This document shows positions 4,155 through 6,005 of a DNA stretch of 9,740 bases, piece by piece. Each line of letters opens with the position of its first letter. The first letter of the stretch is position 1. Source of the stretch: a virus. Its lineage: Duplodnaviria > Heunggongvirae > Uroviricota > Caudoviricetes. Both the position numbers and the translations under genes were made by a program. The stretch is from the IMG/VR virus record IMGVR_UViG_2671181019_000001; one strand, 5' to 3'. The notes beneath the pieces were generated by a model that saw only the letters and a list, made by a program, of their open reading frames with translations, was not told the origin of the DNA and did no database searches.

Positions 4155-4487
4155 ATGACGAGCAAAGAAACCTTTACCCATTACCAGCCGCTGGGCAACA
4201 GTGACCCGGCTCATACCGCAACCGCGCCCGGCGGGTTGAGTGCGAAAGCGCCTGCAATGACCCCGCTGATGCTGGACACCTCCACCCGTAAGCTGGTTGC
4301 GTGGGATGGCACCACCGACGGTGCTGCCGTTGGCATTCTTGCAGTTGCTGCTGACCAGACCAGCACCACACTGACGTTCTACAAGTCCGGCACGTTCCGT
4401 TATGAGGATGTGCTCTGGCCGGAGGCTGCCAGCGACGAGACGAAAAAACGGACCGCGTTTGCCGGAACGGCAATCAGCATCGTTTAA
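4155..4487 (+). CDS. D: Head decoration protein D
   Basis: 110 aa [12 protein letters not shown]...AGTAISIV, recognised as lambda gpD; AAGGGA 5 nt upstream of ATG 4155. The track ATG at 4149 overlaps the Shine-Dalgarno and is unlikely to be the start. Confidence 0.95.
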
Positions 4488-4504
4488 CCTGACCCTTCAT
4501 CACT

Positions 4505-4529
4505 AAAGGCCGCCTGTGCGGCTTTTTTT
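4505..4529 (+). terminator. Intrinsic-terminator-like hairpin between D and E
   Basis: AAAGGCCGC (4505-4513), loop CTGT, GCGGCTTTT (4518-4526): 9-bp stem with one G-U pair, followed by a run of 7 T (4523-4529). Confidence 0.5.
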
Positions 4530-4542
4530 ACGGGATTTTTTT

Positions 4543-5568
4543 ATGTCGATGTACACAACCGCCCAGCTGCTGGCGGCAAATGAGCAGAAATTTAAGTTTG
4601 ATCCGCTGTTTCTGCGTCTCTTTTTCCGTGAGAGCTATCCCTTCACCACGGAGAAAGTCTATCTCTCACAAATTCCTGGACTGGTAAACATGGCGCTGTA
4701 CGTTTCGCCAATTGTTTCCGGTGAGGTTATCCGTTCCCGTGGCGGCTCCACCTCTGAATTTACGCCGGGTTATGTCAAGCCGAAGCATGAGGTGAATCCG
4801 CAGATGACCCTGCGTCGCCTGCCGGATGAAGATCCGCAGAATCTGGCGGACCCGGCTTACCGCCGCCGTCGCATCATCCTGCAGAACATGCGTGACGAAG
4901 AGCTGGCCATTGCTCAGGTCGAAGAGATGCAGGCAGTTTCTGCCGTGCTCAAGGGCAAATACACCATGACCGGTGAAGCCTTCGATCCGGTTGAGGTGGA
5001 TATGGGCCGCAGTGCGGCGAACAACATCACGCAGTCCGGCGGCACGGAGTGGAGCAAGCGTGACAAGTCCACGTATGACCCGACCGACGATATCGAAGCC
5101 TACGCGCTGAACGCCAGCGGCGTGGTGAATATCATCGTGTTTGATCCGAAAGGCTGGGCGCTGTTCCGTTCCTTCAAAGCCGTCAAGGAGAAGCTGGATA
5201 CCCGTCGCGGCTCTAATTCCGAGCTGGAGACAGCGGTAAAAGACCTGGGCGAAGCGGTGTCCTATAAGGGGATGTATGGCGATACGGCGATCGTCGTGTA
5301 TTCCGGACAGTACGTGGAAAACGACGTCAAAAAGAACTTCCTGCCGGACAACACGATGGTGCTGGGGAACACTCAGGCACGCGGTCTGCGCACCTATGGC
5401 TGCATTCAGGATGCGGACGCACAGCGCGAAGGTATTAACGCCTCTGCCCGCTACCCGAAAAACTGGGTGACCACCGGCGATCCGGCGCGTGAGTTCACCA
5501 TGATTCAGTCAGCACCGCTGATGCTGCTGGCTGATCCTGATGCGTTCGTGTCCGTACAACTGGCGTAA
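4543..5568 (+). CDS. E: Major capsid protein (HK97-fold)
   Basis: 341 aa MSMYTTAQLLAANEQKFKFDP...AFVSVQLA, recognised as lambda gpE; ATG 4543 follows GGGA and a T-run. The track start at 4516 is a GTG inside the upstream hairpin. Confidence 0.96.
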   Translation: MSMYTTAQLLAANEQKFKFDPLFLRLFFRESYPFTTEKVYLSQIPGLVNMALYVSPIVSGEVIRSRGGSTSEFTPGYVKPKHEVNPQMTLRRLPDEDPQNLADPAYRRRRIILQNMRDEELAIAQVEEMQAVSAVLKGKYTMTGEAFDPVEVDMGRSAANNITQSGGTEWSKRDKSTYDPTDDIEAYALNASGVVNIIVFDPKGWALFRSFKAVKEKLDTRRGSNSELETAVKDLGEAVSYKGMYGDTAIVVYSGQYVENDVKKNFLPDNTMVLGNTQARGLRTYGCIQDADAQREGINASARYPKNWVTTGDPAREFTMIQSAPLMLLADPDAFVSVQLA

Positions 5569-5570
5569 TC

Positions 5571-5597
5571 ATGGCCCTTCGGGGCCATTTTCTCTCT
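5571..5597 (+). other. Perfect 7-bp hairpin with TTCG tetraloop plus pyrimidine tract immediately 3' of E
   Basis: ATGGCCC (5571-5577), TTCG (5578-5581), GGGCCAT (5582-5588), then TTTCTCTCT. Begins 2 nt after the E stop codon. Confidence 0.45.
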
Positions 5598-5609
5598 GTG
5601 GAGGAGTCC

Positions 5610-6005
5610 ATGACGAAAGATGAACTGATTGCCCGTCTTCAGGTGCTGGGTGAGCAACTGAACCGTGATGTCAGCCTGACGGGGACGAAAGAAGAACTGG
5701 TGCTCCGTGTGGCAGAGCTGGAAGAGGAGCTTGATGACACGGATGACGCTGCCGGTCAGGACACATCTGTCAACCCGGAAAATGCGCTGACCGGACATGA
5801 AAATGAGGTGGTATCAGCGCAGCCGGATACCGTGATTGATACGGCTGCTCTGGTCACGGTCGTGGCACTGGTGACGCTGCATACTGATGCACTTCACGCC
5901 ACGCGGGATGAGCCTGTGGCATTTGTGCTGCCGGGAACGGCGTTTCGTGTCTCTGCCGGTGTGGCAGCCGAAATGACAGAACATGGCCTGGCCAGAATGC
6001 AATAA
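5610..6005 (+). CDS. FI: DNA packaging / head assembly protein FI
   Basis: ATG 5610 with GGAGGA at 5600-5605; 131 aa MTKDELIARLQVLGEQLNRDV... with acidic central linker; position and sequence consistent with lambda FI. Confidence 0.9.
   Translation: MTKDELIARLQVLGEQLNRDVSLTGTKEELVLRVAELEEELDDTDDAAGQDTSVNPENALTGHENEVVSAQPDTVIDTAALVTVVALVTLHTDALHATRDEPVAFVLPGTAFRVSAGVAAEMTEHGLARMQ

Follow-up and report, generated by a model that had tools for sequence, protein, structure and literature searches.

The major capsid gene E of this lambda-like phage is followed by a real, conserved RNA stem-loop of the terminator type, which lies on the + strand between E and FI. We estimate at roughly 50% the probability that this hairpin serves chiefly to protect RNA 3' ends, with only leaky termination, delimiting the D-E (capsid) part of the late mRNA on its 3' side. 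The main rival to this reading is that the hairpin acts as a leaky transcriptional attenuator.

A stem-loop with a C(UUCG)G tetraloop follows the capsid gene

Our window, by which we mean the whole 9,740-nt stretch of DNA analysed, covers the head and proximal tail part of a lambda-like phage late operon. Its genes run in the same order as in lambda (end of A, W, B, C/Nu3, D, E, FI, FII, Z, U, V, G), and the sequence around the site is 99.8% identical to phage phiSTEC1575-Stx2k and ~95% identical to lambda. The E protein shares 99.7% amino acid identity with that of phiSTEC1575-Stx2k and ~98% with lambda-type E. Only two intergenic gaps in these 9.7 kb exceed 20 nt, D-E (55 nt) and E-FI (41 nt), and each is occupied by a stable hairpin with a T-rich tail, in agreement with a prior reading made from the sequence alone (the sequence-only reading), which had noted that D and E are each followed by a stem-loop (Table 1).

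Table 1. Positions of the two hairpins and of the neighbouring features in the window
Feature	Position	Strand	Basis
D-E stem-loop AAAGGCCGC/ctgt/GCGGCTTTT and T7 run, shaped like a classic intrinsic terminator	4505..4529	+	sequence, folding, relatives
Major capsid protein gene E, 341 aa	4543..5568	+	ORF list; lambda annotates E at the homologous place
E-FI hairpin, perfect 7-bp stem ATGGCCC/GGGCCAT with C(UUCG)G tetraloop	5571..5588	+	sequence, folding, covariation
Pyrimidine-rich tail TTTCTCTCT, weak U tract	5589..5597	+	sequence
FI Shine-Dalgarno GGAGGAG (5600-5606) and FI ATG (5610-5612)	5600..5612	+	sequence
FI gene, DNA packaging chaperone, 131 aa	5610..6005	+	ORF list, lambda FI homology

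The E-FI hairpin proved to be as that reading had described it, both in sequence and in fold: a 5' arm (5571-5577), a TTCG loop (5578-5581) and a 3' arm (5582-5588) that pair perfectly over 7 bp, starting 2 nt past the E stop codon (TAA at 5566-5568, followed by TC at 5569-5570). The loop is closed by a C-G pair, giving C-UUCG-G at 5577-5582, which is the extra-stable UNCG form that had been proposed for it. The predicted folding energy is -12.3 kcal/mol (z = -3.3 against dinucleotide shuffles, 1 of 200 of which folds as well), and even when up to 300 nt of flank is included on each side, the pairing probability of the five G-C core pairs stays at 0.96 or more. A generic terminator scan detects the element. 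Its 7-bp stem with 5 G-C pairs and a 4-nt loop, in sense orientation at a gene end, falls within the usual description of an intrinsic-terminator stem (GC-rich, about 5-14 bp, loop of 3-8 nt, sense orientation, gene end). For the U tract, that description asks for about 7-9 nt directly 3' of the stem; here the tail UUUUCUCUCU has 3-4 U adjoining the stem, then alternating C/U, with 5 T in the first 8 nt. The U-rich stretch abuts the stem, and GUGGAGGAG comes next.

Taken alone, the hairpin is weak evidence, because hairpin counts across the window match chance. There is no window-wide enrichment of perfect stems of at least 7 bp (4 found, 4.1 expected under a first-order Markov model) or of terminator-like sites (11 found, 9.7 expected). 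What is non-random about the E-FI hairpin is its placement and its conservation, not counts; none of the other gene ends in the window, 12 in all with that of E, is followed by a hairpin as strong. An Rfam scan of the whole window at permissive thresholds returned chance-level matches only, the single match at the E-FI site being PhotoRC-I (14.2 bits against a gathering score of 45, E = 8.9).

In the companion gap, where the D stop lies at 4487, the stem-loop itself spans 4505-4526 and its T run extends to 4529. This T7 run is kept across lambda-type and N15-type relatives, while loop and stem vary. A second T7 run, directly before the E ATG, occurs only in lambda-type phages; relatives have AAAAATCT there. 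The homologue of the D-E stem-loop is annotated as a rho-independent terminator in N15, HK225 and mEp237. A weak Rfam match to isrK, an Hfq-binding sRNA, overlaps this region (4458-4528, +; 18.1 bits against a gathering score of 50, E = 2.6), and we took it as chance.

The hairpin is conserved as a + strand RNA structure

A first set of related loci comprised 80 near-identical prophages with almost no variation, and sequence diversity was drawn from a GTDB scan and from distant phage records. Across about 110 lambda-type copies there is hardly any change in the 18 nt of the hairpin, in contrast to its tail and to the spacer upstream of FI, both of which vary; only A5571 to G recurs, and it retains a G-U pair.

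We then aligned 20 distinct enterobacterial variants, taken from prophages of 8 genera (Kluyvera, Citrobacter, Enterobacter, Phytobacter, Trabulsiella, Buttiauxella, Klebsiella, Pluralibacter) together with N15, phi80 and HK225. The only invariant columns are the ten core positions GGCCC...GGGCC. Both outer pairs covary, as A-U/G-U/G-C and as U-A/C-G/U-G, and the observed covariation score was reached by 4 of 500 shuffles and fell sharply in slid-partner controls. Because a G-U pair becomes an A-C mismatch on the other strand, the structure under selection is the + strand RNA, and the comparison indicates that the element is selected as such at its position. Loops of the UNCG class occur in 16 of the 20 variants, 13 of them UUCG. 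The remaining four, all of the N15/phi80 clade, have G-C in place of A-U at the stem foot, which fits selection on overall stability, if within a single clade only.

Tails are more variable. Those of enteric relatives are T-rich (mean ~5/8, ranging from CTTTCT to T8); some, such as TTTCTTTT and TTTTTTTT, are richer than the tail in our window, with GGGCCGTTTTTTTT a canonical example. Lambda itself has UUGUUUCUCU, a weak U tract like that of the window. Homology between lambda-type and N15-type phages continues across the hairpin site into FI, so the site is not a mosaic junction.

The GTDB scan also returned many lambda E matches of about 95-99% identity on contigs that are short, and many of which carry a low-coverage label, in assemblies of unrelated taxa including Kitasatospora, Bradyrhizobium, Chitinophaga, Prevotella and Corynebacterium, among others (L101-L116, L129, L132, L135, L137, L142, L144-L152, L154-L156, L161, L163, L166, L167, L171, L172). 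These look like contamination of public assemblies with lambda control DNA.

Other lineages carry unrelated hairpins in the equivalent place

Phage 21-type capsid genes (~60% amino acid identity) carry an unrelated hairpin at the same position, GCGGGGGC/gaaat/GCCCCCGT followed by a T6 run, and a sister version of it shows a compensatory G-C to A-U change. More distant E-family phages and prophages (27-46% identity) likewise have GC-rich hairpins of their own after the capsid gene; this set includes Alteromonas, Stenotrophomonas, Vibrio, Burkholderia, a Chi-like Salmonella phage, Marinobacter, Xanthomonas, Aeromonas, Ruegeria, Rhodobacter and others. When all gene ends of a locus are ranked by the strength of the hairpin that follows them, the capsid gene end comes first in 16 of 28 lineages and is among the top two in 23 of 28 (combined p = 3.5e-16 against random 78-nt windows, a value that is indicative only, the 28 lineages being not fully independent). 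A few lineages, namely Paenibacillus phiERICV and several marine MAGs, are without a post-capsid hairpin. The distance from capsid stop to hairpin is short, mostly 1-22 nt, and that from hairpin to next start codon ranges from 11 to 56 nt; on these grounds the hairpin is tied to the gene that precedes it.

In about half of the non-lambda lineages the 8 nt past the stem contain three T or fewer, and two of these U-tract-poor cases, the Chi-like PK5 and a prophage of Trabulsiella guamensis, come from enteric hosts. The feature that the lineages have in common thus appears to be the hairpin, not the U tract. A stem-loop 3' of the capsid cistron, kept as structure and not as sequence, is also the placement expected of an mRNA 3' stabiliser.

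Another terminator-like hairpin of the window lies inside the gene C coding sequence (GAACCCGC/ctatgc/GCGGGTTT, then TCTTTTGTG; 2892-2913, +), where it spans the codons for EPAYARVFFC about 48 nt past the stop of the portal gene B (2845). Across 15 enterobacterial prophage relatives, a 30-nt stretch here shows almost no synonymous change, unlike the codons around it, which vary, and the few changes fall in the loop or past the tail, or preserve a G-U pair. This hairpin may be a conserved intragenic RNA structure.

FI starts downstream of the stem

The hairpin's first arm opens with an ATG (5571) that is in frame with FI, and an ORF called from there encodes 144 aa. We rejected 5571 as the FI start: it has no Shine-Dalgarno, its codon is unconserved, and the match to lambda FI starts only at 5610, from where the product aligns along its whole length with 87% identity. 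Lambda FI is itself annotated from the ATG homologous to 5610. These comparisons identify 5610 as the true start and the 5571 extension as an annotation artefact. The sequence-only reading was right that a naive ORF caller extends FI to the stem, since extension to a stem ATG or GTG does occur in public records (phi80 RefSeq). That the hairpin "sequesters" the ATG is, by our analysis, incidental: the ATG lacks a Shine-Dalgarno, and relatives have GTG, GCG, CGG, CTG or ACG in its place.

In the phi80 RefSeq record (NC_021190; L004 1777) the FI homologue begins at a GTG that forms the hairpin's first base, and in PhiR12_2 (L006 2247) the CDS of the FI homologue is extended so as to start upstream of that phage's own, unrelated hairpin. 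Both starts lie upstream of an ATG preceded by a Shine-Dalgarno and are probably mis-annotated.

Relation to annotated terminators and to known intercistronic hairpins

In N15 (AF064539), the stem-loops after genes 7 (the D homologue) and 8 (the E homologue) are each annotated as a "putative rho-indep. transcription terminator", and in HK225 (NC_019717) those after the decoration and capsid genes are labelled "rho-independent terminator". Because these homologues are already annotated, the E-FI element is of an already known kind, and the "3' stabilisation or partial termination" offered by the sequence-only reading is the standard interpretation. The N15 and HK225 stem-loops are homologous to those of the window and occupy the same two positions, with the GGCCC...GGGCC core, a 7-bp stem, a 4-nt loop and a T-rich stretch that precedes the Shine-Dalgarno of the FI homologue; they differ in having G-C and not A-U at the stem foot, ATTC and TGTC loops in place of UUCG, and a CTTTCT tail. 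Annotation of the post-capsid hairpin is inconsistent between phages. It is unannotated in lambda, HK630, phi80 and 21, and the hairpin of mEp237 (L178 1777-1794) is identical to that of HK225 (L002 1779-1798), with only HK225 annotating a terminator there.

Leaky terminators follow abundant structural genes in phiX174, where partial termination at T_J, T_F and T_G has been measured (bioRxiv 10.1101/2020.03.05.979765), and inefficient terminators with partial termination are mentioned for phage T7 in a citing passage of PMC9163698. As at E-FI, a terminator-type hairpin stands directly 3' of a high-copy structural gene in a polycistronic unit, and a grading of mRNA dosage has been proposed; the phiX174 and T7 transcripts, however, are made without a processive antiterminator such as Q, and the E-FI hairpin is known here from its sequence. 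The malE-malF REP and the Rhodobacter puf hairpin are intercistronic stem-loops that shield upstream operon mRNA from 3' exonucleases, an effect that has been demonstrated. They resemble the E-FI hairpin in being stable hairpins between a highly expressed upstream and a less expressed downstream cistron, and the proposed mechanism is the same. They bear no sequence relation to it, REPs are longer, imperfect palindromes, and for E-FI stabilisation is a proposal of ours. Hairpins of the C(UUCG)G type were reportedly first noted, by Tuerk et al. in 1988, in phage T4 intercistronic regions and in rRNA. The E-FI loop is likewise a UUCG closed by C-G between phage cistrons, although C(UUCG)G is a structural motif class and not a functional family, and 4 of 20 relatives have non-UNCG loops.

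A model for RNA 3'-end protection

The reading that we favour starts from the report that Q-loaded polymerase sterically keeps terminator hairpins from forming at the polymerase (PMC9388147). The late operon would be transcribed by Q-loaded RNA polymerase that mostly reads past the hairpin, which would then fold in the released RNA behind the polymerase. Once an endonuclease had cut downstream of it, perhaps within the U-rich tail, the folded hairpin would block 3'-to-5' exonucleases, and E-terminated RNA would somewhat outlast the RNA for FI through the tail genes. A minority of polymerases, either unmodified or having lost Q, may terminate at the hairpin. The net outcome would be a modest bias of mRNA dosage toward D and E, atop larger differences in translation initiation. 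Three parts of this scheme are inferred: that Q-loaded polymerase reads through, that the hairpin acts as an exonuclease barrier, and how large the effect is. Protection is favoured because about half of the non-lambda lineages are without a U tract and because Q-loaded polymerase blocks terminator hairpins, the latter arguing against efficient late termination at E-FI. Counting against it, a 7-bp hairpin is a modest exonuclease barrier. Given the known ribosome footprint and a stem that begins 2 nt past the stop codon, ribosomes terminating on E would also have to melt the stem repeatedly.

A search of a literature library found no RNA 3'-end, half-life or coverage data around E-FI; the sRNAs of a lambda RIL-seq preprint lie elsewhere (LPR1, LPR2, 6S), and an EHEC Term-seq study is confined to tR'.

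That the two hairpins help to set the stoichiometry of D and E, as the sequence-only reading suggested, is unproven. The claim is plausible in direction, the effect is likely minor, and the claim is probably overstated. The major tail protein V of lambda is abundant and needed at roughly half the copy number of E. Since its gene lies beyond both hairpins, these can attenuate transcription only modestly, if at all. Relative late-gene expression was reportedly attributed to translation initiation in 1988 by Sampson et al. (PNAS 85:5439), to go by the title of that work.

Competing explanations

Under the main rival, the hairpin and its pyrimidine tail release a fixed fraction of polymerases, even Q-modified ones, so that fewer transcripts reach FI and the tail genes, and stabilisation is secondary. 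We regard this as a real possibility, if a minority one. The element has full intrinsic-terminator anatomy that a terminator scan picks up, its homologues have been labelled rho-independent terminators by annotators, and phiX174 provides documented cases of leaky terminators behind abundant structural genes, with phage T7 cited as another example. T-rich tails are enriched in enterobacterial relatives, several of them canonical, and together with the perfect, conserved T7 run of the D-E partner they look like selection for real termination, which favours attenuation. Against it stand the block that Q-loaded polymerase imposes on terminator hairpins (PMC9388147), the weak U tracts of the window and of lambda, the roughly half of non-lambda lineages, some of them enteric, without a U tract, and the position of high-copy V (a copy number that is general knowledge) downstream of both hairpins. 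The same terminator anatomy would suit an insulator acting only on Q-free polymerase, in lysogens or early infection, to halt stray structural-operon transcripts; such polymerase should be sensitive, judging from PMC9388147. This idea does not account for a hairpin that, in 23 of 28 lineages, directly follows the capsid gene, nor for the many versions without a U tract, and we consider it quite improbable. Two further terminator types were considered and rejected. A minus-strand or bidirectional terminator would have no T run on the minus strand, where the G-U pairs become A-C mismatches. PMC9388147 proposes a hypothetical "Q-dependent" non-standard terminator in which hairpin, spacer and then a 7-9 nt U tract follow one another; at E there is no displaced U tract, the U-rich stretch abutting the stem, and at D the second T7 run is not conserved, relatives having AAAAATCT.

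The hairpin might instead act on translation: by preventing re-initiation or coupling it would keep the very dense ribosome flow on E apart from FI, or it would influence how accessible the FI ribosome-binding site is. The spacing is suggestive, in that the stem begins 2 nt past the E stop and only 11 nt separate its end from the FI Shine-Dalgarno, which in some relatives lies within 2-6 nt of the stem. Yet disrupting the stem in silico barely shifts predicted accessibility (from 0.40 to 0.47 for the FI Shine-Dalgarno and from 0.29 to 0.25 for the AUG), and across lineages the element tracks the capsid stop at short distance while its distance to the next start varies from 11 to 56 nt. These two results make a translational role unlikely. 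A chance palindrome, or a DNA-level site for protein binding or recombination with no RNA function, would agree with the window-wide count of perfect hairpins, which equals chance expectation. Such an origin is very unlikely, and the comparative data bring it close to refuted: the pairs covary with + strand-specific G-U pairs, unrelated hairpins stand at the equivalent position in other lineages, the minus strand has no T run, and lambda-type/N15-type homology passes through the site into FI with no mosaic junction.

Implications

If RNA 3'-end protection is the correct reading, a decay barrier may tune capsid-gene mRNA dosage post-transcriptionally, and a "capsid mRNA 3' cap", in place of attenuation, would then be the general rule. 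We put this rule forward tentatively, because antiterminated polymerase bars hairpin action and because, across lambda-E-family phages, the stem is kept where the U tract is often lost. In a rarer, lambda-type variant of it, ribosomes terminating on E would gate the folding of the stem, since the stem starts 2 nt past the stop codon, so that what becomes of the downstream transcript would depend on E translation.

For annotation, the start of FI is 5610 and not the stem ATG or GTG, and extended public starts such as that in the phi80 RefSeq record are probably wrong. For the operon, the site offers a concrete place to ask what terminator-shaped hairpins do in an operon that Q makes terminator-proof. 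Neither the annotation point nor the operon question alters the current understanding of lambda; the comparative pattern, in which the hairpin is retained and the U tract is optional, gives a testable lean toward RNA stabilisation.
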